Assembly: GCA_011524975.1 (NCBI GenBank)
Contig: WTJD01000029.1
Span: 1-59,092, forward strand
DNA from: Lysobacterales bacterium
GTDB taxonomy: Bacteria; Pseudomonadota; Gammaproteobacteria; Xanthomonadales; SZUA-36
Direction: 5' to 3'
DNA length: 59,092 nucleotides
In this document: piece by piece, positions 527 to 12,491 of the stretch
Layout of the letters: each line of letters begins with the position of its first letter
How positions within the stretch are numbered: position 1 is the first letter of the stretch
Position numbers and translations under genes: made by a program
Notes under the pieces: model-generated
What the model was told of the DNA's origin: nothing
Database searches by the model: none
Seen by the model: only the letters and a program-made list of their open reading frames with translations

Positions 527-1132
527 TTGAACCAGCCCGCAGCATTTCGTGTTACACAGCCGCCCGTTTCAATCGCTTTGATCATTTTTTGCGCGGTCGT
601 GTTTTTCACGCAGTTCATGCCGGCCAACATGGCGCTCTGGCCCCTGCAAAGCGGGTACTTCGCACCCTGGCAACTGGTCAGCTATGGTTTTCTCCACGGC
701 GGTTTCAACCACCTGTTCTTCAACATGTTCGCCCTGTGGATGTTTGGCCTGCAACTGGAGCGGGTGTGGGGCAGCCAGCGGTTCGCGCTTTACTATTTTG
801 TCTGCATCGTGGGCGCGGCCATAACGCAGCTGATTGTCCAGCAGCTGAGCGGACAGTTCTATCCCACGATCGGGGCTTCCGGCGCCGTGTTCGGTCTCCT
901 GCTGGCCTATGGCGTGACCTGGCCGGAAAATCGCGTGCTGCTGCTGTTTTTCCCGGTGCCGATCAAGGCCAAGTGGTTCGTGCTCATCTACGGCGGCATT
1001 GAATTGATATTCGGCATCACCAACGCCATGCCCCAGATCGCGCACTTTGCCCACCTGGGGGGCTTGCTGTTTGGTGCCGGCCTGCTCTGGCGATGGGGCT
1101 GGCGCCCCGGAATGACCTGGAAGAAGCGGTAG
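527..1132 (+). CDS. Rhomboid-family intramembrane serine protease
   Basis: The 201-aa polytopic protein carries the GASGAVFGLL (GxSG catalytic Ser) and HFAHLGGLLFG (catalytic His) motifs. The TTG start is preceded by GGAGA at 516-520. Confidence 0.8.
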   Translation: MNQPAAFRVTQPPVSIALIIFCAVVFFTQFMPANMALWPLQSGYFAPWQLVSYGFLHGGFNHLFFNMFALWMFGLQLERVWGSQRFALYYFVCIVGAAITQLIVQQLSGQFYPTIGASGAVFGLLLAYGVTWPENRVLLLFFPVPIKAKWFVLIYGGIELIFGITNAMPQIAHFAHLGGLLFGAGLLWRWGWRPGMTWKKR

Positions 1133-1134
1133 AT

Positions 1135-2835
1135 TCAGAGTCCGCCGTGCTCCAGGGGGCGCTCACGGTGCATCAGGATCCACTCCGCATGCTCCTCCAG
1201 TGCCGCGGTACCCACCGCTTTAAGCACACGTCTCTGAAAGTGGATATCTGAAGCGTTCTCTAACAAGCGACCCGCATTTCCAAAGACCCTGGTCATGAAC
1301 TGGTACTGCTTGATCAGTTCACGTTCGGCACGCTTGTGGGAATAAGTGTCGCGTACACCGGCAATCAGCGGCAGCACACCGGTAAGCACCAGCATAACCT
1401 GGAAAGATTGCGGCGACAGTTGCCCGCCCGCAACCGCGAGGATGGCGGCAATCAGTATGCCTGACCACAACGAGATGGCGCCCAAACGGGTGGTGCGTTG
1501 GTAGCCCTTTGCCTTCTGCAGACTCTTTCGATGGTAATAGGCCAGCTGGCCCCCTTCTCCCGATGAACCCACCCATTTATCAATCACCCAGGGCACCCAG
1601 TCATCACCCGGGGCCTCGGTTCGATCTCGCCACAGGCTGGCGGAGCGCATGACGTGACGAATCCACCCCAGATCGACGTCCTGCTTCTGCAGGAAATTGT
1701 CATAGGCGAAAACGGCTGACTGGGTTTCGACCACGCCAGCGAGGTTCCAGAACAATTGCACCCGTAAACCCTCAGCCAGGGCGCGGTAATCCAGATACTT
1801 GCGGTGCCATTCGCGTCGCTCACCAATGGCATGAAAGATAAAGCCTGCCCCGAACAACGCGAGAAACATGTAAATCAGAAACTGTGGCCCTTCGTACTCC
1901 GCGTAGATCAGGAACACCAAGCCCATCATGACGGCCAACAGATGGACCACCATCATGCCTTGATGCACCCGCTTCTGGAAATGGATGGCCAGCCAATCGG
2001 CCTGACCAAACAAACTGTTGACCCGCCTGGCCCCGCCGGGCAAAGGAAAGTCTGAGTTAGCATCCAGCAGTGAATCGGCCTCTGCCAGGATTCGGTCTTC
2101 GTACTTGTGCACGTCTGCCTGGTACTCATGCAACCGTTGCAGAGTGATCCTGTAATCGAACGGCATTTCATCGGCCACCGTTCGCTCGAAATGCGCACTC
2201 AGCCAGTATTCCTGCAGCGGCTCGAGGCCCTCCAATGGCGCCCCGGACTCGCGCTCACGAGAAACCACGATCTGGTAGAGCAGGTCATTTTCATTGTCGG
2301 CCAGCAGATTCGGGGACTCCTCTTCCAGCTCGAATCCAGGCATGACCGCTGTGAGGTGATAGTTGACGACACCCGCCGTACCACCCACCTGCTCATCCGG
2401 CTTGCCATTCCACAAAGCCAACAGAATCTGGCAATGATTGGAGACGAACACACCGAGTTGCGCATACTGCCAGTCTCTGGCGGCACCGGGCGAATTGATG
2501 CACTCGGGCGTGCTGCCCTTGACCAACGGCAGCGGGATAACATGGCCCCGGTTTCTCAGCTTTCGGAAGTTTTCAAGGCCGGCCTGTGTGGCGAAGTCTT
2601 TCTCATATTCCGCAACCTCCATCGGCAGCGGCACGACCAGTGGAATATCGAGGTCGGTAGCCACCTCGGCCACCAACTGGTCCGCACCTTCCGCCAGTGG
2701 CGAAATCAGCTGCAGGTCGAGGCCCGGAAACTGCTCCTGCATGCGCAAGAAAAAAGCCCGAACCTGCTCCCGCAGGTCGGGCTTTTCTGATTCCAACAGG
2801 TCGCGGTGACCAGTGACACCAATGGTCAGGTTCAT
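1135..2835 (-). CDS. Membrane protein with an N-terminal YpsA/LOG-like (SLOG-type) Rossmann domain and two tandem 2-TM (SLATT-like) modules
   Basis: 566 aa. The N-terminal pattern IGVTGHRDL / SPLAEGADQLVAEVA / VVPLPM / ILLALWNGKPDEQVGGTAGVV parallels the strand-loop pattern of YpsA (DUF1273) and LOG. Four predicted TM helices fall at about aa 294-312, 318-336, 451-470 and 478-494. Each pair is followed by a basic/aromatic helix (WHRKYLDYRALAEGLR; YSHKRAERELIKQYQF). It is the last gene of the 6245->1135 cluster. Confidence 0.5.
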   Translation of the reverse strand: MNLTIGVTGHRDLLESEKPDLREQVRAFFLRMQEQFPGLDLQLISPLAEGADQLVAEVATDLDIPLVVPLPMEVAEYEKDFATQAGLENFRKLRNRGHVIPLPLVKGSTPECINSPGAARDWQYAQLGVFVSNHCQILLALWNGKPDEQVGGTAGVVNYHLTAVMPGFELEEESPNLLADNENDLLYQIVVSRERESGAPLEGLEPLQEYWLSAHFERTVADEMPFDYRITLQRLHEYQADVHKYEDRILAEADSLLDANSDFPLPGGARRVNSLFGQADWLAIHFQKRVHQGMMVVHLLAVMMGLVFLIYAEYEGPQFLIYMFLALFGAGFIFHAIGERREWHRKYLDYRALAEGLRVQLFWNLAGVVETQSAVFAYDNFLQKQDVDLGWIRHVMRSASLWRDRTEAPGDDWVPWVIDKWVGSSGEGGQLAYYHRKSLQKAKGYQRTTRLGAISLWSGILIAAILAVAGGQLSPQSFQVMLVLTGVLPLIAGVRDTYSHKRAERELIKQYQFMTRVFGNAGRLLENASDIHFQRRVLKAVGTAALEEHAEWILMHRERPLEHGGL

Positions 2836-2874
2836 CGGCAGGTCGCGGTCCCGATAACCGGCATGACGACTGGG

Positions 2875-3396
2875 TCAGCGGCCGCCGGTTCCATCGTTTT
2901 CCATGCGCGGATCGAACCAGATGGTGCGGCCGTCACATTCCGCCGAAACGCGGTACCACAGGCTGTAAGCCGCACTGTTGTCATCCCGGATAGAAATGGA
3001 GTTGCCCCGACCCGTCGGGATGTCGCCGCTGCCGGCATCGGCACCAAAATCTGCCGCCGCGGTCTGGCTCAGGTTGCCCCACGAACCCTTGCCACCCGAG
3101 TTCTCACCACCCAGCTGCACGCCGGTCAACTCCCACATCGAGCCTGACCCGCATATACGATCATTGACCAGCCGGAACGTGATATCACCCCTGCCACTCA
3201 CGCGGACGCAGCCATTCTCCGAACTGTTCACACAGCGGCCATGATTCGAACCCTGCGCGTTGTATTCCAGCGCGGTTTCGCTGTCGTTGACCCTGAGCAG
3301 CACGAGGTTCGATGGCTGCCCCTGGGCCATGGCGAGGCCGGGCAGAAATAACAGCGCCAGCAGTACGTATCGGGAACTTCCTGTTTTCTTATGCAT
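2875..3396 (-). CDS. Secreted Cys-containing protein of unknown function; paralogue of the 5625-6245 product
   Basis: I trimmed the start to MHKKTGSSRYVLLALLFLPGLAMAQG (signal peptide), which has GGAG 9 nt upstream. It shares GC[VM]R[VF], TG[VI]QL, WY[RQ]V[ST]AE.C and the C-terminal DPR.EN.GTG.R with the 5625-6245 protein. Confidence 0.6.
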   Translation of the reverse strand: MHKKTGSSRYVLLALLFLPGLAMAQGQPSNLVLLRVNDSETALEYNAQGSNHGRCVNSSENGCVRVSGRGDITFRLVNDRICGSGSMWELTGVQLGGENSGGKGSWGNLSQTAAADFGADAGSGDIPTGRGNSISIRDDNSAAYSLWYRVSAECDGRTIWFDPRMENDGTGGR

Positions 3397-3451
3397 TGTT
3401 TTTACTCCGTTGGTTAGGTGGCAAGTCGCAGGCACTGTCTACTCCTGCATT

Positions 3452-5563
3452 TCAATCACCGGTACACAATTCGTATTCCCGGCAAAAACTGATGAATTCG
3501 GGTTCGTAGTAGCCTTTCGCCAGCAGGTTCGCAGTATAGCCCTTAGCCGCTTCGCTTCGCTCCTGAAGAATCGCGTTTTGAACCGCCAGTCGCATATGGG
3601 TGCACGAAGGGCTTTCCGACTCGACAATGGGCATTTCCATTATCTCGTTCACATGGGGGGTTAAAGGTACTTGGCCGTGTCGTTGAAAATACCGAAAAGC
3701 AGCGTCGAGCAGAGAAAACTTAAGCAGTTCTATTTGCGGGGCCGCGTCAACTTGCTCACTTGAGTAAGCGAGTGCCTGGTTCAGTACCTCTTCCGCCAAT
3801 TTGGACGCTCCGGCCGATCGCGCAATCCTTTCACGCACGAGCAGGAATGAACCGTATTCTTCACTGAGGTCAACCGGGATAGATTGCCCCCCCTGCAGCG
3901 TGGCCTGCCAAGCTTCATTCAGCTGGTCTGCCTCCGACAGGGCGACAGCCGCGGGTTCTTCCAGTGAGGTCACGGCCAGCAAACGCGAACGCCGCTCCAT
4001 GAGCAGCATCTTGAGCCTGATATCGCTTGGATCAGATTCAATCAGGGTTTCGAGCAGACCAATGGACTCCCGCAAGCTGGCAGCCGCCTGTCCCACAAGG
4101 CCGACATTCAACTGGACCCGGGCCAAACCGCCAAGGCCGTAGCCGAGGAATCGCCTGGCCCGCGGATCGTCTGGGTCGGTCTCGACCTCCTTTCGCGCGA
4201 GTCGCGTGCCTTCGATTCGTGCCTGGAGTGCCCCGCCCAGATCACAGACTTGGAGGTGCGCGTCCGCCAGGAATGCGTGAGACTGTTCCAATTCGCGCTC
4301 ATAATCCGAGTTGCCTGGGTCGAGCACCAAGGCAATCTGGTTGAATTGCAGCGCCGCCTGCAGATATTGCCGAGCCCGCAACGGGTCACCCCGCCGGCTC
4401 CGCTTTTCCAGGCCACCCAGGTTCGAGAGGGCATAGGTCATTTCGAGCACCCATTCCGCATTTTCCGGCTCTGCCCGTAACAACTTTCGTGTAATCCCCG
4501 TGTAAACCAGGAAAGATCGCTCCGCTTCGTCGAAATCGCTGGCGTCCATGGCCATCTGGCCGAGCCAGTACTCGGCCTGGCCCAGTTCAAACAGCAGGGC
4601 CGTGCTTTGATTTTCCCGATAATGTTCTGCGATCAAGGCCCAGGAGCGGCTGAATGCGTCGATGGCATCATCCGCCTGGCCTTGACGCCAAAAGTCAATA
4701 CCTGCCTCGCGCAAGGCGAAAGCCGTGGTGAGTGCACTGTCCCTATCCACGCCGGATTCGCGGAGCAGCGCCTCGAGTTCAGCATCGCTCCATTCCTTGA
4801 GCCGGGCCAGTTCCTCACCGGCCTGCGGCGCCTCGATCAGGCCTGCCACTTCATTCAGCTTGAAGCCCACCAGTTGTTCGGCGGACGCGCGCCGCGCTTC
4901 GGCCGCCGCCTGGCTCTTCTGCGCCGAAATCCGGAAGGTAATCGCCAGCATGATAATCACGGCGACTGCGAGCACACCCACCGTCGTCAGTGCCCAAATG
5001 CGCTGCCGGCGCTGCAAGTCGCGGCGGCGGAGACTGTCCAGCGCAATACCGAGAATGCCGGACAGCAGCTTGAGCAGGGACAGCAGCTTGCCATCCGCCC
5101 ATTTGCGGGCGTCCGCCGCCAGCGGCTCGATTTCCGACCCATCTTCGGCCTCCAGCAGCGCCGGCGGAAAACAATTTTCCCCTTCGCGACCCGCGGGATC
5201 GCCGTCAACGATGACCGCGAAGATCCGGTCGCCGCGGCCCTGCCGGCGAAATTCACGGATCTCCTCGTTAACCCACCGGGACGCGGCCGCCGCCGGTGAG
5301 CAGATCACCACCAACGCACCCGAATCGGCCAGGACCTGCTTGACCTTTGCAGACAAATCCGATCCCGATGACAACTCTTCGCGATCCAGGAAAACCGGCT
5401 GTAAGCGCTTGGGGATGACACCGAACGACGTGTTCTGTCCGACCAGTTTGCCGGGAATGCGGTAACGCTCCAACTGACGGTGAAACCACTTGGCCCAGGC
5501 TTCGTCCGCGTGGTTATAGCTGATGAACGCCTTGTATCTGAAGGAGGACATGTTGCCCGTCAT
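3452..5563 (-). CDS. TIR-domain protein: N-terminal TIR, one TM helix, large C-terminal TPR-like helical-repeat domain
   Basis: The TIR_2-like N-terminus reads YKAFISYNHADEAWAKWFHRQL...VFLDREELSSGSDL...LVVICSPAAAASRWVNEEIREF, with an SxWxxxE-type putative catalytic Glu. The TM helix is IWALTTVGVLAVAVIIMLAITF. About 480 aa of TPR-like repeats follow. The start is ambiguous between ATG 5563 and ATG 5551; the track's 5653 start would overlap the upstream gene. Confidence 0.75.
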   Translation of the reverse strand: MTGNMSSFRYKAFISYNHADEAWAKWFHRQLERYRIPGKLVGQNTSFGVIPKRLQPVFLDREELSSGSDLSAKVKQVLADSGALVVICSPAAAASRWVNEEIREFRRQGRGDRIFAVIVDGDPAGREGENCFPPALLEAEDGSEIEPLAADARKWADGKLLSLLKLLSGILGIALDSLRRRDLQRRQRIWALTTVGVLAVAVIIMLAITFRISAQKSQAAAEARRASAEQLVGFKLNEVAGLIEAPQAGEELARLKEWSDAELEALLRESGVDRDSALTTAFALREAGIDFWRQGQADDAIDAFSRSWALIAEHYRENQSTALLFELGQAEYWLGQMAMDASDFDEAERSFLVYTGITRKLLRAEPENAEWVLEMTYALSNLGGLEKRSRRGDPLRARQYLQAALQFNQIALVLDPGNSDYERELEQSHAFLADAHLQVCDLGGALQARIEGTRLARKEVETDPDDPRARRFLGYGLGGLARVQLNVGLVGQAAASLRESIGLLETLIESDPSDIRLKMLLMERRSRLLAVTSLEEPAAVALSEADQLNEAWQATLQGGQSIPVDLSEEYGSFLLVRERIARSAGASKLAEEVLNQALAYSSEQVDAAPQIELLKFSLLDAAFRYFQRHGQVPLTPHVNEIMEMPIVESESPSCTHMRLAVQNAILQERSEAAKGYTANLLAKGYYEPEFISFCREYELCTGD

Positions 5564-5624
5564 ACCTGCCTGAAGCGCGAACGGCGGGCGCTGGCACCCG
5601 CGGTCGCCTGACGAATTGGCCGCA

Positions 5625-6245
5625 TTATCTGCCCGTGCCCCGGTTTTCGCCACGCGGGTCGGTGACCCACGGGCCGTCCTTGTTGGAACCCGGGCAGGCT
5701 TCTGCGGTCACCTGGTACCAGAAGGTTTTTACGCCATCAGCAGCATCATTGAAGTTGGCGTTGAGCAGCCAGACTTGCGTCGTACCGCTATTTACGCCGG
5801 CCTCATAGGCGTAGCCATTCGACAGGTCGAGCGCCAGGAAGGCGTCGTCCTTGAGCCATTGCTCAGGCAAAACGGTAAAATCGCCTTTATCCCCGCCACT
5901 GCTGGTCGCCAGTTCTGTCGTGGTCAGCTGTATACCTGTAATGACCTCCTTCGCCCCGGAATCGCAGGTTTTGCTGGTTTGCTTGGACCCGGGAAGGTAG
6001 AACTGGACCAGGCCAACCGTGTCTTTCGCAAAGCGCATGCAGCCGTTGTGAGGATTGTTGAGACAGCCCTTGTTGGCCGTATCGACCTTGAGCACACCGC
6101 TGTTCCCCTGGGGTACCAGTTTTATGGAAAACGCCTTGGCGGCAAGCCGGTTACCGCCACCGGTCAGCCCGATCTGAGTTGCACATCCTGTCAATACGGC
6201 TGCGGTCAGCACAGCAATCATCAATCCCTTGACTGGGTTTCTCAT
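5625..6245 (-). CDS. Lipoprotein of unknown function; paralogue of the 2875-3396 product
   Basis: MRNPVKGLMIAVLTAAVLTGC is a lipobox signal (LTG|C). A GGAGAA RBS lies 5 nt before the ATG. Four Cys positions and the C-terminal motif DPRGENRGTGR are conserved with the paralogue. Confidence 0.65.
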   Translation of the reverse strand: MRNPVKGLMIAVLTAAVLTGCATQIGLTGGGNRLAAKAFSIKLVPQGNSGVLKVDTANKGCLNNPHNGCMRFAKDTVGLVQFYLPGSKQTSKTCDSGAKEVITGIQLTTTELATSSGGDKGDFTVLPEQWLKDDAFLALDLSNGYAYEAGVNSGTTQVWLLNANFNDAADGVKTFWYQVTAEACPGSNKDGPWVTDPRGENRGTGR

Positions 6246-6475
6246 AGCCTTCTCCCCGCCGGCCTGAGCGCCGGCTATTTAATTATTGGTTTTCGTAGCA
6301 CGACGACACACTGTCGGTGTGCCGGGATTTTTCTTGTTTTTCGAATTTTCCAACACGGAATATACCCGAAACCCGCGATTTCTGCGCTCAAACGCCCCGA
6401 AAATCCTTCATACGCTTGGCCGCCGGGATGCGCCGAGGGATAATGCGCGCGATTCAGGAAAGCCGCTAACGACTC

Positions 6476-6727
6476 ATGAACTGCTCCGTATTTCGCTCGC
6501 CACGCAAAGACTATACGTACCTGTACCTGGCCGACGATTGCAGGCTGGAAGATCTTCCGGGCACCCTGCTCGACGCCTTCGGCACGCCTGAGTTCGTCAT
6601 TGGACTGGAGTTGTCACCGGAACGCCAGCTGGCCAGCGAGGATGTGGGCGAGGTCATGGCCAACCTGCGCGAGCAGGGTTACCACCTGCAGCTGCCGCCC
6701 GGCGACCAAGTGGGCGACCTGATCTGA
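6476..6727 (+). CDS. ycgL: YcgL-domain protein
   Basis: The 83-aa protein has CSVFRSPRKDYTYLYL and EQGYHLQLPP, matching E. coli YcgL (CVIYRSSKRDQTYLYV ... EQGYYLQLPP). Confidence 0.8.
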   Translation: MNCSVFRSPRKDYTYLYLADDCRLEDLPGTLLDAFGTPEFVIGLELSPERQLASEDVGEVMANLREQGYHLQLPPGDQVGDLI

Positions 6728-6736
6728 GAAAAGATT

Positions 6737-7699
6737 TCAATCCACGCGATTCATCAGCTGATCACGTTCGAAGCCATGAATCAGGCGCACGATTTGATCG
6801 ATCAACGCCTGGCGGGCTTTGCGACTGGCCCAGGCGTTGTGGGGTGTCAGGATCAGGTTGGGTATATCGTCAGCCAGCAGCGGGTGATCAGGTGGCGGTG
6901 GTTCTACGCTGAGCACATCGATCGCGGCCCCTGCGATCAGGCCATCGCGCAGGCAGTCTGCCAGATCGGTCTCCTGCACGATGCCGCCCCGTGCCGTGTT
7001 TACGAGGACAGCGGTCGATTTCATTCGAGACATGACTTCGCGGTCAAACAAGCCGTTTGTCTCCTCATTCAATGGGCAATGAATGCTGATGACATCTGAG
7101 TGTTTCACCACCTCCTCGAATGGATGACGATCTGCCCGCGGCTCGCGCCCCTTGTGTTCGGCGATCAATACATTCATACCCAGGCGCTGGGCATAGTCCG
7201 CCACGCTGCGGCCCAAAACCCCGTACCCTACAATGCCCAGGTTCAGGTCCGCGAGCTGCCTGATGGGCCGGTCAAACAGGCTGAAATGCTTGGCAGACGA
7301 CCACTCTCCTTTCCTCACACGATCCCGGTAAAAAACCTGCCCCGTGACCAGGTTGAGCATGGAAGACAACACGTGCTGGGTGACCGCTTCAGTGGCATAG
7401 TCGCGGCAATTGCAAACGACAATGCCTTGCTGACGGGCAGCCTCGAGATCGACGTTGTTGGTACCCGTTGCCGCGACGATGATCAATTTCAGACATTCCG
7501 CCTGGTGCAGGGTATCGCGATCCAGTGACACCTTATTGGAGATGACCAGCTCGGCCGGTGCAACGCGCGCAGCTACTTCCTCCGAGGAGGTCTGTTCGTA
7601 CCATACCCAGTCGTCAAGGGAAGCAGATAGCGATTCGAGTTCAAGGTCATGGTTATCGACAGACCCCAGGTCGAGGAACACGCCATGATTCAGCAGCAA
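6737..7699 (-). CDS. D-isomer-specific 2-hydroxyacid dehydrogenase (glycerate/hydroxypyruvate reductase-like)
   Basis: It has the NAD-binding motif LGIVGYGVLGRSV and the conserved segments LVNTARGGIV, AAIDVLSVEPP and TPHNAWAS. Confidence 0.8.
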   Translation of the reverse strand: MLLNHGVFLDLGSVDNHDLELESLSASLDDWVWYEQTSSEEVAARVAPAELVISNKVSLDRDTLHQAECLKLIIVAATGTNNVDLEAARQQGIVVCNCRDYATEAVTQHVLSSMLNLVTGQVFYRDRVRKGEWSSAKHFSLFDRPIRQLADLNLGIVGYGVLGRSVADYAQRLGMNVLIAEHKGREPRADRHPFEEVVKHSDVISIHCPLNEETNGLFDREVMSRMKSTAVLVNTARGGIVQETDLADCLRDGLIAGAAIDVLSVEPPPPDHPLLADDIPNLILTPHNAWASRKARQALIDQIVRLIHGFERDQLMNRVD

Positions 7700-7770
7700 C
7701 TTTGGAGCCTCCCTTCGCCATCGGGATTCATCGCCAACATCCTAACCAAACCGCCCCGACTTGTCGCCGC

Positions 7771-7802
7771 CCAAAATAAAAGGCCGCATCGCGGCGGCCT
7801 TT
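7771..7802 (-). terminator. Rho-independent terminator downstream of exbD
   Basis: The stem aaggccgc (7780-7787) pairs with gcggcctt (7794-7801) around a 6-nt loop. On the minus strand it is followed by TTTATTTT. Confidence 0.7.
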
Positions 7803-7822
7803 ACATGTAGCCTGGTTTCGCT

Positions 7823-8227
7823 CTAGCGCGACGTGGTAGCCACGCTTACGCTGGCCACACCCACCGCCTCGGCTGCGTCGAGAATGGTCACCAACGCGTC
7901 TGTTTCGGCATCGGGGTGAGCCGCCACGATGAGCGGTGATTCCGGCTTTTCAGCCTTTTCCCGTTCCAGGTTGGCCTGAACCGCCTTGCGTTCCAGCAAC
8001 CGCCCTTTCAGGGTGATATTGCCGCTGGAATCGATCTTGACCACGATCGGGCCCTTCTTCTGCTCCACCTGCTTGGGCGGCGTATTGGAGGGTCGTGAAA
8101 CCTCGAGGCCCTTCTCCTTGATAAAGGAGGTGGTCACGATAAAGAAGATCAGCATGATGAAAACGATGTCCAACATCGGCGTGATGTTGATTTCGGCTTC
8201 GTCTTCAGCTTTGTACTTTCTGCGCAT
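7823..8227 (-). CDS. exbD: ExbD/TolR-family biopolymer transport protein
   Basis: The 134-aa protein has EINITPMLDIVFIMLIFFIV, the typical ExbD N-terminal TM segment. Confidence 0.8.
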   Translation of the reverse strand: MRRKYKAEDEAEINITPMLDIVFIMLIFFIVTTSFIKEKGLEVSRPSNTPPKQVEQKKGPIVVKIDSSGNITLKGRLLERKAVQANLEREKAEKPESPLIVAAHPDAETDALVTILDAAEAVGVASVSVATTSR

Positions 8228-8431: not shown

Positions 8432-9151
8432 ATGCAGAAAATCATTCGCCAAAAGCTGAGCCTCGAACCAAAAAACGGTTACCTGCACTACCATGCCCGT
8501 CGTTACGCCTCCTTGCTGGCGAGCCTGGAGCAGCGCTACGAACCCGGGCAACGGGTGCTGGAGATTGGGCGCAGCCCGTTCAGCGCCATGGCGGCCGAAC
8601 ATCTGGGCGCCCATGTGGATACGCTGGGTTTCGGCGAGGAACATGAGACCCGTCACGGCAGGCACTGGTGCTTCGATCTGAACCACAGCACCCGCAAAAA
8701 GAAGTGGAGACCCGATCTGCCCGTGTACCAACACATTCTCTTCGCGGAAGTGGTGGAGCACCTGCTCGCACCACCGGCATCCGTGCTGCGATTCATACGC
8801 TCCCTAATGGATGATGCCGGCTGGCTTTACCTGCAAACCCCGAATGCGGCCGTGCTGCACAAGCGTCTGCAGTTACTCATGGGAAAGAACCCTTACCAGG
8901 AACTTCCGACCGACCATTCAAACCCCGGACATTTTCGGGAATACACGCGCTCTGAAATGCTGCGATTTGCCGCCCAGGCGGACTTCGTGGTGCGGGATTG
9001 TTCTTACGCGAACTACTTCGACTATCGTTACAGCGGTCACGTAGAGGGCCGTCCACCCCGGCCATTGTTTGGGGCCATCAACGGTTTCTACCGGCTCTGC
9101 CCAGGCGGCCTGAAACCGGGCATGATGTTCATACTGCAACCCGCGCGGTAA
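8432..9151 (+). CDS. Probable class I SAM-dependent methyltransferase
   Basis: It has the motif-I-like RVLEIGRSPFS and the later segments ILFAEVVEHL and WLYLQTPN. The glycine-rich loop is degenerate. Confidence 0.45.
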   Translation: MQKIIRQKLSLEPKNGYLHYHARRYASLLASLEQRYEPGQRVLEIGRSPFSAMAAEHLGAHVDTLGFGEEHETRHGRHWCFDLNHSTRKKKWRPDLPVYQHILFAEVVEHLLAPPASVLRFIRSLMDDAGWLYLQTPNAAVLHKRLQLLMGKNPYQELPTDHSNPGHFREYTRSEMLRFAAQADFVVRDCSYANYFDYRYSGHVEGRPPRPLFGAINGFYRLCPGGLKPGMMFILQPAR

Positions 9152-9172: not shown

Positions 9173-11005
9173 TCACTCCACTGTGACCGACTTGGCCAGG
9201 TTGCGCGGTTGGTCGACATCGGTGCCACGTTGGACGGCCGCATGGTAGGCAAGCAGCTGCAACGGCAAGGTCAGCACCACGGGCGCCAGCAACTCGCCAC
9301 CCGTATCCAACTTAACCAGCCGGCCATGCCGCGGGCCGAATCGTGACTCCGTTTCCGTATCGGCGATCACCAGCAGCTGGCCGCCCCGCGCATGAACCTC
9401 CTCGATATTGGAGATCAGCTTCTCAAGCAGCGGGTTGTTGGGCGCCACCGCAATAACCGGCATTTCGGAATCCACCAGCGCCAAAGGCCCGTGTTTGAGC
9501 TCGCCGGCAGGATAAGCCTCTGCGTGGATATAGGAAATCTCTTTCAGCTTCAGCGCGCCTTCCATGGCGATGGGGTAATGACTGCCACGGCCAAGGAACA
9601 GGGCATGGTGCTTGTCGACAAACGCCTCGGACAGCTGCTTGAACGTGGCGTCCAGGCTCAGCGCCTGGTTCAGCAGGTCAGGCAAGTGATTCAAATCAGC
9701 GACAAATCCGGCATACCGATCTGCATCCATCCCATTCAGCCGCGCCAGCTCGAGCACCAGTAGCTGAAGCGACACCAGCTGGGTGGTAAAGGCTTTGGTC
9801 GATGCAACGCCAATCTCAGGGCCCGCACGCGTCATGAGAACGAGATCCGCCTCCCTCACCACGGAACTGGCTGGCACGTTGCAGATGGCCAGTGTCGTGA
9901 GGTAGCCCGACTGCCTGGCATGTCGAAGCGCGGCCAGCGTATCTGCTGTCTCACCCGACTGGGATATGGTGACGAACAGGGTGCCTTCGGGCACCACAGG
10001 GTCGCGGTATCGGTACTCGCTGGCCACCTCCGTTGTGCAGGGTATGCCGGCCAGCTGTTCAAGCAGGTATCTCGCCACGAGGCCCGCGTGAAAACTGGTG
10101 CCACAGGCAACAATATGCACATGGCGCACTTGGGACAGAAGCTCCTCGGCGCCGACGCCGAAAATGTTCGGCAATATCCGACGGGCGCTGATGCGGCCTT
10201 CCAGGGTCTCGGCGACCGCCGTGGGCTGTTCGAAAATCTCTTTCAGCATGTAGTGCCGGAAATCACCGCGCTGCACGGCATCGGCATTGATCTCCGCCTC
10301 CACCTCCGGCCGGTCCACCCGCGACCGTGCCGCGTCATGAATGACATATCCGCTGGTATTGAGGGCGACGACATCGCCCTCTTCCAGATATATGAAACGC
10401 TGCGTGATAGGCAGTAAAGGGAAAATATCCGAAGCCAGGAAATGCTCACCCTCACCCAGGCCCAGCACCAGTGGGCTGCCCTGGCGCGCGCCGACCACCA
10501 CGCCCGGCTCGGCGGCACTGACCACTGCAATGGCGTAAGCGCCCTCCAGCCTGTCTACGGCGATCTGCACCGACTGCAGCAGGTCATGGCCCTGCTCCAT
10601 GATGCCGGCAATCAGATGCGCCATAACCTCGGTGTCGGTTTCAGAGGTGAACTCGGTGCCGGATTGCTCCAGCTCCTGGCGCAAATCCTCATGGTTTTCG
10701 ATGATGCCATTGTGCACCAGCGCCACGCGGTCGCCCGAGGCCATGGGATGCGCATTGCGCTCACTGGGAACGCCGTGCGTGGCCCAGCGCGTGTGCGCGA
10801 TGCCGCAGTGCCCGGCCACCGGCTGAGCCTCCAGCAGCTGGTCCAGCTGGGAAACTTTGCCCTCCGTCCGTCGCCGCTCCAGCCCGCCACGGGCCTGCAG
10901 CGCGATGCCCGCCGAGTCATAACCCCGATACTCCAGCGAATGCAGACCCGACATCAGGATCTCAACAATGTCTCGCTCAGCGCTGGCGGCTACGATTCCA
11001 CACAT
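9173..11005 (-). CDS. glmS: Glutamine--fructose-6-phosphate aminotransferase
   Basis: 610 aa. The MCGIVAA N-terminal nucleophile, two SIS domains and the C-terminal NLAKSVTVE are present. Confidence 0.97.
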   Translation of the reverse strand: MCGIVAASAERDIVEILMSGLHSLEYRGYDSAGIALQARGGLERRRTEGKVSQLDQLLEAQPVAGHCGIAHTRWATHGVPSERNAHPMASGDRVALVHNGIIENHEDLRQELEQSGTEFTSETDTEVMAHLIAGIMEQGHDLLQSVQIAVDRLEGAYAIAVVSAAEPGVVVGARQGSPLVLGLGEGEHFLASDIFPLLPITQRFIYLEEGDVVALNTSGYVIHDAARSRVDRPEVEAEINADAVQRGDFRHYMLKEIFEQPTAVAETLEGRISARRILPNIFGVGAEELLSQVRHVHIVACGTSFHAGLVARYLLEQLAGIPCTTEVASEYRYRDPVVPEGTLFVTISQSGETADTLAALRHARQSGYLTTLAICNVPASSVVREADLVLMTRAGPEIGVASTKAFTTQLVSLQLLVLELARLNGMDADRYAGFVADLNHLPDLLNQALSLDATFKQLSEAFVDKHHALFLGRGSHYPIAMEGALKLKEISYIHAEAYPAGELKHGPLALVDSEMPVIAVAPNNPLLEKLISNIEEVHARGGQLLVIADTETESRFGPRHGRLVKLDTGGELLAPVVLTLPLQLLAYHAAVQRGTDVDQPRNLAKSVTVE

Positions 11006-11011
11006 AACCCA

Positions 11012-12370
11012 TCAGTCCTTTTTTGTCGGCCGTTTCCATTGGGGGATCGTGACCTGCTTGCTGCGGCTCAGGGTCAGCTGACCGGCGGGAACATCCCGCG
11101 TAATGGTCGAACCGGCGCCGATATCCGCGCCCTGCCCAACGGTGACGGGCGCGACCAATTGCGTATCCGAGCCGATGAAAACATCGTCTTCGATAATCGT
11201 CTGGTGCTTATTCACACCATCGTAATTACAGGTGATCGTACCGGCCCCGATGTTCACCCCATCCCCGATGGTCGCGTCACCCAGGTAACTCAGATGACTG
11301 GCCTTGGTCCCGTCTCCCAGGCGCGCGTTCTTGGTCTCGACGAAATTGCCGACCTTGGCGCCTTCACCCAGCTGCGTACCCGGCCGCAATCGGGCGAATG
11401 GGCCAATCTGGCAAGCGCCCGTCGTTGTCACGCCTTCCAGCACGCTGTTGGCATGCACCTGCGTGCCCGGCGCGAGCTCACAGTCTGTCAGGACGCAACC
11501 GGGTCCGACAGACACACCCTCGCCCAGGCGGACGCGACCTTCCAATACGACATTGACGTCGACCCAGGCATCGCTCGCCCCATCGACATCACCTCGGATA
11601 TCCACCCGGTTCGGGTCCACGATCCGGACGCCGGCGCGCATCAACCGCTCGGCCTCCGAGACCTGGAATCTCCGCTCGAGCGCCGCCAGCTGCACCTGAT
11701 CGTTGGCCCCGGCCAGCTCCCAGGCGCGCTCGGCGGTCACGCTGCCCACGCCCACCTGGTCGGCGGCCGCCATCTCGAAAATATCGGTCAGGTAATACTC
11801 GCCCTGGCTGTTGCCCTGCTCCAGGCGCCCCAGCCAACCCACTAAAGGGCCTGCTTGGGCCACCAGTACGCCCGTGTTGACTTCCTGGGTCAACCGCTGG
11901 TCGGGCGTGGCATCACGTTCTTCGACGATGCTCTGAATGCTGCCCTCAGCTCCCCTGACGATGCGTCCATAACCGGTGGGATCCCCGAGCGTCATGGTCA
12001 GCGCGCGCAAGGGCTCATCACCCGCCAACAACGGTCTCAGGGTTGCAGCGCGAATCAACGGTATATCGCCATACAGGACCAGCACCCGGGCATCGGGCGG
12101 GATACCCGGCATCGCTTGCTGAACTGCGTGCCCGGTGCCCAGGCGTTGCTCCTGAGGCACCCACACCACATCGAAATCGGCACAGGCATCGCGCACTTCG
12201 GGCGCCGCTGGATTGAACACGACGTGCATGCCTTCCGGCCCCAGCGCGCAGGCTGTGTTCAACACACGTCGGAGCATGGGCTGCCCGCCCACGGTGTGCA
12301 ATACCTTGGGCAGGCGTGACTTCATGCGGGTTCCGTCACCGGCTGCGAGTATTATGATATGCAACGCCAT
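11012..12370 (-). CDS. glmU: Bifunctional UDP-GlcNAc pyrophosphorylase / GlcN-1-P acetyltransferase
   Basis: It has HIIILAAGDGTRMKSRLPKVLH and C-terminal hexapeptide repeats. I trimmed the start to MALHIIILAAG; the track ORF starts at 12403. Confidence 0.95.
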   Translation of the reverse strand: MALHIIILAAGDGTRMKSRLPKVLHTVGGQPMLRRVLNTACALGPEGMHVVFNPAAPEVRDACADFDVVWVPQEQRLGTGHAVQQAMPGIPPDARVLVLYGDIPLIRAATLRPLLAGDEPLRALTMTLGDPTGYGRIVRGAEGSIQSIVEERDATPDQRLTQEVNTGVLVAQAGPLVGWLGRLEQGNSQGEYYLTDIFEMAAADQVGVGSVTAERAWELAGANDQVQLAALERRFQVSEAERLMRAGVRIVDPNRVDIRGDVDGASDAWVDVNVVLEGRVRLGEGVSVGPGCVLTDCELAPGTQVHANSVLEGVTTTGACQIGPFARLRPGTQLGEGAKVGNFVETKNARLGDGTKASHLSYLGDATIGDGVNIGAGTITCNYDGVNKHQTIIEDDVFIGSDTQLVAPVTVGQGADIGAGSTITRDVPAGQLTLSRSKQVTIPQWKRPTKKD

Positions 12371-12491
12371 GAGCGAAAATGTCCTGCAAACAATTCGGTT
12401 CAACAGTATAGCGGCAAGCCCTGACCCGCTCTATCGAATACAGGCGGTCAATCATGGCTTTTCCAGGGCGTTAATCCATGGCTGAAGGGCC

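Follow-up and report, generated by a model that had tools for sequence, protein, structure and literature searches.

Can a bacterial TIR pathway receive its input from beyond the inner membrane? To our knowledge, the characterised bacterial TIR systems (Thoeris types I–XI and related ones) all use a soluble cytoplasmic TIR that senses phage components inside the cell. The question is raised by four adjacent genes, here called A, B, C and D, which lie on a stretch of 59,092 nucleotides (nt) from a Lysobacterales bacterium (contig WTJD01000029.1, positions 1 to 59,092; "the window" denotes this whole stretch). B is predicted to be a TIR protein anchored in the inner membrane and carrying a large tetratricopeptide-repeat (TPR) domain, A and C are small secreted proteins of a single family (S), and D combines a SLOG-like domain with SLATT-type transmembrane (TM) modules. 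By analogy with Thoeris, we read the locus as a nucleotide-signalling module fixed in the chromosome, whose sensor would face the periplasm and whose signal would be made by B and read by D, a reading to which we grant an even chance.

The four open reading frames (ORFs), taken from an ORF listing and direct reading of the window, all run on the minus strand, to which the coordinates of their parts also refer: A at 5625..6245, B at 3452..5563, C at 2875..3396 and D at 1135..2835. The intergenic gaps measure 61, 55 and 39 nt (A–B, B–C and C–D), in agreement with the four co-directional genes and gaps of about 40–60 nt described by an earlier reading of the letters alone (the sequence-only reading). 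A promoter and terminator scan gave nothing in excess of shuffles, and terminator-like sites between the four genes did not exceed the number expected from these, which, together with the short gaps, is consistent with one operon. The base composition of the locus is uniform with that of its flanks.

The candidate signal generator is B, a protein of 703 residues starting with MTGNMSSFRY. Its TIR domain (5084..5539, about residues 9–160) matches the Pfam families TIR_2 (1.1e-16, 61.8 bits against a cutoff of 28) and ThsB_TIR (1e-8, 35.9 bits against a cutoff of 21.2), and both families match in 24 out of 24 relatives of B. In TIR NADases, which share the plant and bacterial WCxxE motif, the catalytic glutamate follows the Trp at a distance of four residues. 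The B sequence places Glu101 (codon at 5261..5263; SRW97-VNE-E101) in such a catalytic-type position (W-x-x-x-E), and we take this residue to be the equivalent of the catalytic glutamate; within the motif S-x-W97-V-x-x-E101, E101 is invariant in 58 of 58 aligned relatives, while W97 is kept in 56 of them. Downstream, B has one strong hydrophobic helix (residues 192–210, 4934..4990; 2.59 in a Kyte-Doolittle scan), ahead of which come a conserved amphipathic segment and RRRDLQRRQR, and its C-terminal ~470 residues are TPR repeats (about residues 235–703, 3455..4861), with a conserved Cys near the C terminus. In the window copy of B these repeats stay below the Pfam thresholds; TPR families match 13 of the 24 relatives (TPR_12, best 2e-20), and the profile of the B family matches consensus TPR structures (1.9e-23, residues about 255–460). 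The architecture proposed from the letters alone, i.e., a TIR domain, a single TM helix and TPRs, has thus been confirmed. As B lacks a signal peptide and has a single TM helix with an Arg cluster on its N-terminal side, we infer an N-in/C-out topology, read from the hydropathy scan and the charge rather than from a dedicated predictor, that would make B a type-II bitopic inner-membrane protein with a cytoplasmic TIR and a periplasmic TPR domain. As a side observation, the TIR region of the B profile matches a PDB entry of 824 residues named "tetratricopeptide repeat protein" (9m0n_A / 9umd; query 74–129, chain 45–103, E 0.013), which may be a solved TIR-TPR protein.

B is flanked by the genes of two small secreted proteins. 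A (206 residues) and C (173 residues), already called secreted paralogues in the sequence-only reading, are indeed related by BLASTP (29% identity, E 1e-6) and share four Cys and a C-terminal DPRxENxGTG. Signals were read by eye or regular expression: A has a lipobox read as MRNPVKGLMIAVLTAAVLTG-C (LTG|C, with Ala at +2), by which it is probably tethered to a membrane through a lipid, the Ala at +2 suggesting the outer membrane, while C has a Sec signal peptide with an AxA-type site read as MHKKTGSSRYVLLALLFLPGLAMA-QG (AMA|QG). Neither protein belongs to a Pfam, NCBIfam or PADLOC family or has a PDB sequence match; Pfam gave scattered chance matches only on 39 members of their family, and a PDB sequence-profile search with the A/C alignment returned zero matches at E ≤ 10. 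When 1.84 billion cluster representatives were searched exhaustively with a profile, 306 family members emerged at E ≤ 1e-3, almost all of them stand-alone proteins of 170–230 amino acids (aa). Exactly four Cys follow the signal region in 158 of the 174 full-length members, a lipobox-like motif is present in 51, and an Asp-Pro situated 7–14 residues (mode 9) before the C terminus, as part of D-P-R-x-x-N-x-G, is shared by 173 (P0001–P0041, P0162–P0306). In the window, this signature pair is Asp196-Pro197 in A (5655..5660, 10 residues from the C terminus) and Asp162-Pro163 in C (2908..2913, 11 residues from the C terminus). Altogether, A and C appear to represent a previously undescribed family of secreted proteins with a D-P signature.

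The AlphaFold model of C is a confident beta-sandwich (predicted local distance difference test, pLDDT, 88.9) and places the D-P in the turn that leads into the last strand. Its best PDB fold matches are SO1698, or "DP-EP", of Shewanella oneidensis (prob 1.0, E 2e-4, but a template-modelling score of only about 0.5 and a root-mean-square deviation of 6–7 A) and MakC/MakD of Vibrio cholerae (6tct, 8rqy), which are likewise small beta-sandwiches. In SO1698, a protein of 125 residues, cleavage reportedly takes place at Asp116-Pro117, nine residues from the end, as Osipiuk and colleagues are said to have found in 2012; the most frequent position of the D-P in the A/C family, also nine residues from the C terminus, recalls this site. 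The names of SO1698 mutants in the PDB (D116A, P117A; PDB 3njm and related) point to the same pair, and SO1698 (DUF1888) is described as a self-cleaving endopeptidase in a reference title of PMC11655445, where it serves as a self-cleaving tag. Unlike SO1698 and MakD, A and C are secreted and have two disulfide-type Cys pairs; at the sequence level they match nothing in Pfam or the PDB. By this suggestive parallel, A and C are possibly autoproteolytic at Asp-Pro; more speculatively, the DPRxxNxG tail of S could be either a ligand for the TPR groove or an autocleavage site. Compared with viral structures, the fold of C met only generic beta-sandwiches and tail proteins. One long candidate relative, P0169 (3924 aa, with 24 partial matches to positions 92–160 of the A/C profile), was set aside as probably repetitive or of low complexity, Pfam seeing only OB_HELZ2 repeats in it; it could still mark a related repeat domain.

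The fourth protein, D (566 residues), would be the receiver and effector. It consists of an N-terminal domain with a predicted SLOG fold, a linker and two SLATT-type 2TM modules. The latter, proposed from the letters alone, are borne out by several family models: the first module (residues 274–360, 1756..2016) matches DUF4231, which we take to be a SLATT-clan family of Pfam (27.3 bits against a cutoff of 24.7, 5e-6; found in 19 of 19 relatives), and the second (residues 430–552, 1180..1548) matches Pfam SLATT_1, at 0.01 in the window and in 16 of the 19 relatives (best 6.8e-5), while SLATT_3 matches six of the 19. NCBIfam concurs, with SLATT_3 on the first module (2.4e-5) and SLATT_1 on the second (4.8e-5). 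The two SLATT matches coincide with the two hairpins formed by four predicted TM helices (about residues 294–312 and 319–337, then 451–469 and 476–494) joined by loops of 3–6 residues, which leaves D nearly without periplasmic surface. The very name SLATT ("SMODS and SLOG-associating 2TM") marks a known association of SLOG with such modules. Regarding the N-terminal domain (about residues 1–165, 2341..2835), the AlphaFold model has a beta-alpha-beta Rossmannoid core, with pLDDT values of 65–93 over residues 1–140, and its top Foldseek matches are ShosA 8zva, DprA 3uqz (prob 1.0) and LOG-like TM1055 1rcu (prob 0.85), all SLOG-superfamily proteins. Moreover, the motifs GxTGHR, PLAEGxD and GGT are invariant among D relatives and, as far as sequence goes, fit the nucleotide-binding loops of that superfamily. 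A PDB sequence-profile search with the D alignment found zero matches at E ≤ 10, and D matches neither the ThsA-type SLOG (STALD) model nor the PADLOC ThsA models. The SLOG-like call of the sequence-only reading is thus supported at the fold level by the model (ShosA, DprA and the LOG family), but it is not echoed by sequence models, which do not detect SLOG.

These proteins differ in their rates of change. More than 3,773 clusters match D, of which the top 120 are all 57–76% identical over the full length and share many long invariant motifs, a degree of conservation that argues for strong purifying selection on D. Identity to the window protein is 45–75% for D, and the TIR region of B has a median identity of 61% to the window copy (range 48–70%) versus 30% (range 17–43%) for its fast-evolving TPR region, while A and C relatives show 25–40% where BLAST detects them. 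A signalling core that is conserved, joined to a sensor surface that diversifies, would be expected to look like this.

To determine which of these genes travel together, we examined the neighbourhoods of their relatives. D relatives occur in 429 species-level stretches (one-genome-per-species GTDB contigs), nearly all from Lysobacterales/Xanthomonadales-type or unclassified gammaproteobacterial metagenome-assembled genomes (MAGs), the carriers including the cultured Elongatibacter sediminis CH-27 (L040, SBSD in the code explained below), Thermomonas and Thioalkalivibrio. The best 80 of these 429 loci were retained, as were 80 of the 564 relatives returned by a B-anchored metagenome search, both samples being ranked by similarity to the window proteins and not random. 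Six-frame ORFs of these loci were scanned with Hidden Markov Models of the A, C, B and D families and with the window ycgL and rhomboid proteins; such ORFs extend from stop to stop, so that starts and overlaps are approximate. With S standing for an A/C-family gene and the order as written, the layouts of the 80 D-anchored loci include BSD (19), SBD (10), SBSD (10), SD (6), DB (4), BBSD (3), BD (3), BSSD (2), SBBSD, SSBD and BSBSD (one each), besides D alone (20). The four-part operon of the sequence-only reading is therefore real in that the arrangement recurs in dozens of independent species genomes and metagenome contigs, but SBSD, the layout of the window, is one of about 12 variants. As for its suggestion that a small envelope protein precedes each membrane protein, it does not hold as a conserved pattern: S sits on either side of B, and S+B pairs occur without D.

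In the 49 D-anchored loci with adequate flanks (at least 3.5 kb upstream and 2.5 kb downstream of D), B adjoins D in 38 and S is next to B in 35. In the 31 B-anchored loci with adequate flanks, B adjoins D in 14 and S in 18; eight have S+B only, and nine have B alone. The S–B pair is the tightest unit, the small proteins tracking the TIR receptor and not D, which fits the near-absence of periplasmic surface in D. The linkage of B and D is frequent and robust to rearrangement, without being obligate. Could these adjacencies simply be inherited synteny, four unrelated neighbours sharing one slot within a clade? Most loci do come from one order-level clade with the ycgL–rhomboid context, and any single component can be missing. 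Yet the B–D adjacency persists through changes of order (DB), of strand (convergent Bd pairs, present among the B-anchored loci) and of context (including BD pairs without a nearby ycgL), S–B adjacency extends to unrelated settings (L001, L002, L101, L116 and others), the genes everywhere overlap or are separated by short gaps, and the domain logic agrees with validated TIR-effector systems, all of which makes mere synteny very improbable in our eyes.

A stronger challenge comes from the loci where D is missing, for the functional unit might be S+B only, i.e., an envelope-triggered, NAD-depleting TIR that is its own effector, with D as an optional or independent neighbour. S+B pairs without D (L001, L002, L101, L114, L116, L134, L136, L145) do stand in housekeeping contexts, beside TonB-dependent receptors and gamma-glutamyltranspeptidase, with no alternative effector there, and B stands alone in the nine B-anchored loci mentioned above; besides, the preprint on Thoeris diversity warns that the TIR may be an NAD-depleting effector in non-verified configurations (bioRxiv 10.64898/2025.12.03.692087). 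This view has to face the return of the B–D adjacency in several orders and contexts, a nucleotide-binding-type SLOG domain in D whose invariant Gly-rich loops call for a ligand, and another lineage in which D is linked to a different NAD-cleaving TIR-like domain (DUF4062; see below), so that we consider it unlikely without dismissing it. Candidates for another effector beside the loci with S+B only or B only were rejected: nothing recurs there but TonB-dependent receptors, gamma-glutamyltranspeptidase and small ORFs of unknown kind, and a 622-aa gene downstream of B in L001, considered as a D analogue, is unrelated to D.

Some variants deserve mention in their own right. Tandem B paralogues are found in L013 (5664–9942), L023, L026, L096, L097, L098 and L037, typically as S-B-B-S-D, and the two B copies differ markedly in their periplasmic domains (in L013, 43% versus 23% identity to the window ectodomain); the S-B-B-S-D arrangement of L013, L023, L096 and L097 suggests that each B brings its own S. 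Directly downstream of distant B genes devoid of S, a small ORF (124–173 aa, without Pfam match) occurs in L155 (5558–5929), L170 (3301–3747) and L172 (3222–3740) and could encode a divergent partner protein. Finally, the contig L016 (JBLHGQ010000025.1), labelled as a "Rhodothermales bacterium" MAG, shows the ycgL / S-B-D / rhomboid synteny with a D that is 66% identical, and is probably a mis-binned gammaproteobacterial contig.

The lineage just alluded to comprises D orthologues that are 47–49% identical to the window protein and belong to Thioalkalivibrio/Ectothiorhodospiraceae-type MAGs (L074, L075, L077, L079, L080, L082, L084, L086). Upstream of D, and co-directional with it, lies a gene for a DUF4062-nSTAND1-TPR protein of ~1,260 aa, then one for a secreted protein of 520–750 aa, then D itself (e.g., 1820–5611, 5690–7930 and 7875–9698 in L077). 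The large protein matches nSTAND1 (2e-97) and many TPRs, whereas its N-terminal DUF4062 is sub-threshold, with a full-length alignment in five out of five orthologues (E 1e-4 to 3e-3); it also has a weak PADLOC match to the candidate system PDC-S60. DUF4062 has been described as a TIR-like NADase in phage defence (bioRxiv 10.64898/2026.05.01.722283, 10.64898/2026.06.25.731849, 10.64898/2026.09.04.749371). The DUF4062-STAND-TPR protein appears to be an alternative sensory input to the same SLOG-SLATT protein, once more in the company of a secreted component. The presence of D beside NAD+-cleaving TIR-type domains in two unrelated architectures is the strongest evidence that D is their downstream partner, and, along with the adjacency of B and D in 38 of 49 loci, it lends independent support to the generator-effector logic perceived by the sequence-only reading. 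The 747-aa protein encoded upstream of distant D (c2), considered as a divergent B, turned out to be unrelated to it, being secreted and without Pfam match.

How does this locus compare with known systems? In type VII Thoeris, a ThsB TIR is paired with the SLATT effector ThsH and the signal is canonical cyclic ADP-ribose (cADPR) (bioRxiv 10.64898/2025.12.03.692087). The likeness lies in a TIR gene beside that of a SLATT membrane protein, with an effector proposed to oligomerise on a TIR-made ADP-ribose derivative. Unlike this two-gene, island-borne anti-phage operon with its soluble cytoplasmic ThsB, the present locus has a membrane-anchored TIR with a TPR domain of 470 residues, one or two secreted partners, an effector with an additional SLOG domain and two SLATT modules, and a vertically inherited housekeeping location. 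In type I Thoeris, SLOG is the receptor of 3'cADPR (bioRxiv 10.64898/2025.12.03.692087), and D would resemble both type I ThsA (SIR2-SLOG) and type III Thoeris (several TIRs with a SLOG effector) in using SLOG as the receiver of a TIR-made cyclic ADP-ribose isomer; unlike ThsA, its output is SLATT and not SIR2. In NCBIfam, the type III model ThcB4 reaches only 25 bits against a cutoff of 220.

A counterpart of D, by description, is found in "TIR + SLOG and 4TM", a putative, unvalidated and untyped Thoeris configuration listed in Tables S1/S2 of the same preprint (bioRxiv 10.64898/2025.12.03.692087), owing to which the pairing of generator and effector counts as already catalogued, though unvalidated. 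D matches these "SLOG and 4TM" effectors in described architecture and in its position beside a TIR gene, the comparison being by description only, and when four sequences were compared, the TIR of B aligned weakly with that of the Nitrospira member (23% identity, E 3e-4). The TIRs of this class are short and soluble, with no secreted partners reported, whereas B is membrane-anchored and has S partners. In the literature searched, and in PADLOC, NCBIfam and Pfam, we found no description of a membrane-tethered TIR with periplasmic TPRs, of the S family or of the fixed housekeeping context. Hence, the assertion that no described system has this composition stands for one half of the locus only: the envelope-facing receptor half and its S partner family appear undescribed, but the pairing of TIR with SLATT is known from type VII and the "SLOG and 4TM" effectors are catalogued.

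Several observations weigh against a Thoeris-like module with a periplasmic sensor. First, the topology of B could be otherwise: a second, weaker hydrophobic segment (LLSLLKLLSGILGIALDSL, residues 160–178, 5030–5086, before the Arg cluster and the TM helix) is moderately hydrophobic, and if it spanned the membrane, the topology would flip and the TPR domain would be cytoplasmic. Being conserved and amphipathic, it is likely a juxtamembrane helix, which could couple the state of the ectodomain to TIR assembly. Second, the SLOG call on D is drawn from a model with a mean pLDDT of 57.8 and Foldseek E-values of only 3e-3 to 0.5, and Pfam has no convincing SLOG match to D (only YAcAr, E 0.12, in one of the 19 relatives). 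Third, D occurs without B in 10 of the 49 D-anchored loci and B without D in 17 of the 31 B-anchored ones, which indicates that their coupling is not obligate, unless the partners are encoded elsewhere; contigs are short, and partners counted as absent may sit past contig ends or elsewhere in the genome. Fourth, neither PADLOC-DB v2 nor NCBIfam recognises a system among the four proteins, PADLOC giving weak single-domain TIR matches for B (best 1.7e-6, SAVED-TIR) and none for A, C and D. Fifth, two "TIR + SLOG and 4TM" operons, one from Streptomyces sp. GKU 895 and the other from Ca. Nitrospira nitrosa COMA1, did not protect E. coli against phages when assayed by the Sorek laboratory (bioRxiv 10.64898/2025.12.03.692087). 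Finally, no D or B relatives were found in IMG/VR viral contigs, and the locus is vertically inherited in a fixed housekeeping slot and not in a defence island.

This slot is delimited as the sequence-only reading had it, the ORF coordinates confirming both borders: ycgL (6476..6727, plus strand), divergent from A with 230 nt between them, is its conserved left boundary, and the rhomboid protease gene (527..1132, plus strand), convergent to D with stop codons 2 nt apart, is its right-hand marker, adjacent or 2–7 kb off in relatives. The ycgL–rhomboid slot is common to most close relatives, with 2-hydroxyacid dehydrogenase, ExbD and glmS/glmU as housekeeping neighbours, and the locus is a vertically conserved chromosomal cluster of marine gammaproteobacteria. 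Of the features of Thoeris, a TIR gene next to an effector with a putative signal-binding domain is present in the window and in the 38 of 49 D-anchored loci; a defence-island or mobile context with a patchy distribution is absent.

At face value, such a setting could suit a physiological role for the same relay, in which a TIR messenger would reversibly gate a SLOG-SLATT ion channel in envelope stress or homeostasis, with a logic like that of the outer-membrane lipoproteins RcsF and NlpE and their inner-membrane sensors IgaA and CpxA. The fixed position among housekeeping genes across families speaks for it, as do the strong purifying selection on D (57–76% full-length identity in the top 120 clusters), the lack of mobile-element or defence neighbours and of viral copies, the outer-membrane-type lipobox of A (Ala at +2) and the two operons without defensive effect. 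Conversely, the periplasmic parts evolve fast and copies of A, C and B are often gained, lost or duplicated, which is more typical of conflict systems; the alternative partner of D elsewhere is a STAND NTPase with a weak PDC-S60 match; and the characterised bacterial TIR systems with SLATT or SLOG are all anti-phage. A purely physiological function is, in our judgement, unlikely.

Returning to the Thoeris-like module, we can outline how it might work; what the analysis shows is the set of genes with their domains, the invariant catalytic-type residue, the recurring B–D and S–B linkage, the contrast in rates and the housekeeping context, whereas the topology, partner binding, NADase activity, signal identity, SLOG receptor role, SLATT output and trigger are inferred, the biochemical steps by analogy with Thoeris types I and VII. 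Briefly, an event in the envelope would be monitored by the TPR ectodomain of B and by one or two disulfide-bonded S proteins (A lipid-anchored, C soluble). A change in this periplasmic complex would be relayed by the single TM helix and, next to it, the conserved juxtamembrane helix, and the TIR domains would assemble and activate, presumably by oligomerisation as in other TIR enzymes. The activated TIR would then cleave NAD+ via Glu101 into an ADP-ribose-derived signal, to be bound by the SLOG domain of D, which would oligomerise or open its two SLATT hairpins in the inner membrane. The output might be depolarisation or permeabilisation leading to growth arrest, abortive infection or a graded ion flux. 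A fuller version, which we put forward tentatively and with more doubt than conviction, is a receptor-type TIR pathway with secreted co-receptors, possibly primed or set free through self-cleavage at Asp-Pro, an envelope input (for instance a phage that attaches or injects, damage to the outer membrane or the peptidoglycan, or a competitor toxin) and an NAD+-derived messenger that would gate a SLOG-SLATT channel, the whole being a vertically inherited near-core trait of a bacterial clade and not a mobile defence island.

Two analogies may help to picture such a receptor. Animal Toll-like receptors (TLRs) with a co-receptor (TLR4-MD-2) also combine an extracytoplasmic solenoid, one TM helix, a cytoplasmic TIR and a small secreted disulfide-bonded beta-sandwich partner. 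Unlike TLRs, B has the opposite orientation (TIR N-terminal), TPRs instead of leucine-rich repeats and a TIR that is probably enzymatic, homology being confined to the TIR. In RcsF-IgaA and NlpE-CpxA, a lipoprotein partner and an inner-membrane protein with a periplasmic domain report envelope perturbation; there, the folds are unrelated to those of the present proteins, whose output is a TIR and not a phosphorelay.

The genes beyond ycgL, named after their counterparts in the annotated relatives L009 and L013, are housekeeping-like: 2-hydroxyacid dehydrogenase (6737–7699), ExbD (7823–8227), a methyltransferase (8432–9151) and glmS/glmU-like ORFs (9173–12403). An Rfam scan of the whole 59-kb window (1–59092) gave no match at the gathering threshold, be it a tRNA, an rRNA or a riboswitch.

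If the fuller, receptor-type version is true, no earlier bacterial TIR pathway would have had an extracytoplasmic input, and a new family of secreted proteins would be defined. The locus offers a compact set of testable parts, i.e., a catalytic-type Glu, a soluble TIR domain, a SLOG domain, a cultured carrier (Elongatibacter sediminis CH-27) and the S family. An envelope-borne or host-specific trigger may also account for the failure of "TIR + SLOG-4TM" operons in heterologous tests. Coupled to a periplasmic sensor and secreted partners, a TIR enzyme would extend the chemistry of its kind to cell-surface sensing, in a topology reminiscent of Toll-like receptors, while the fixed housekeeping position of the locus raises the question of whether TIR-derived nucleotides also serve in non-immune envelope physiology.

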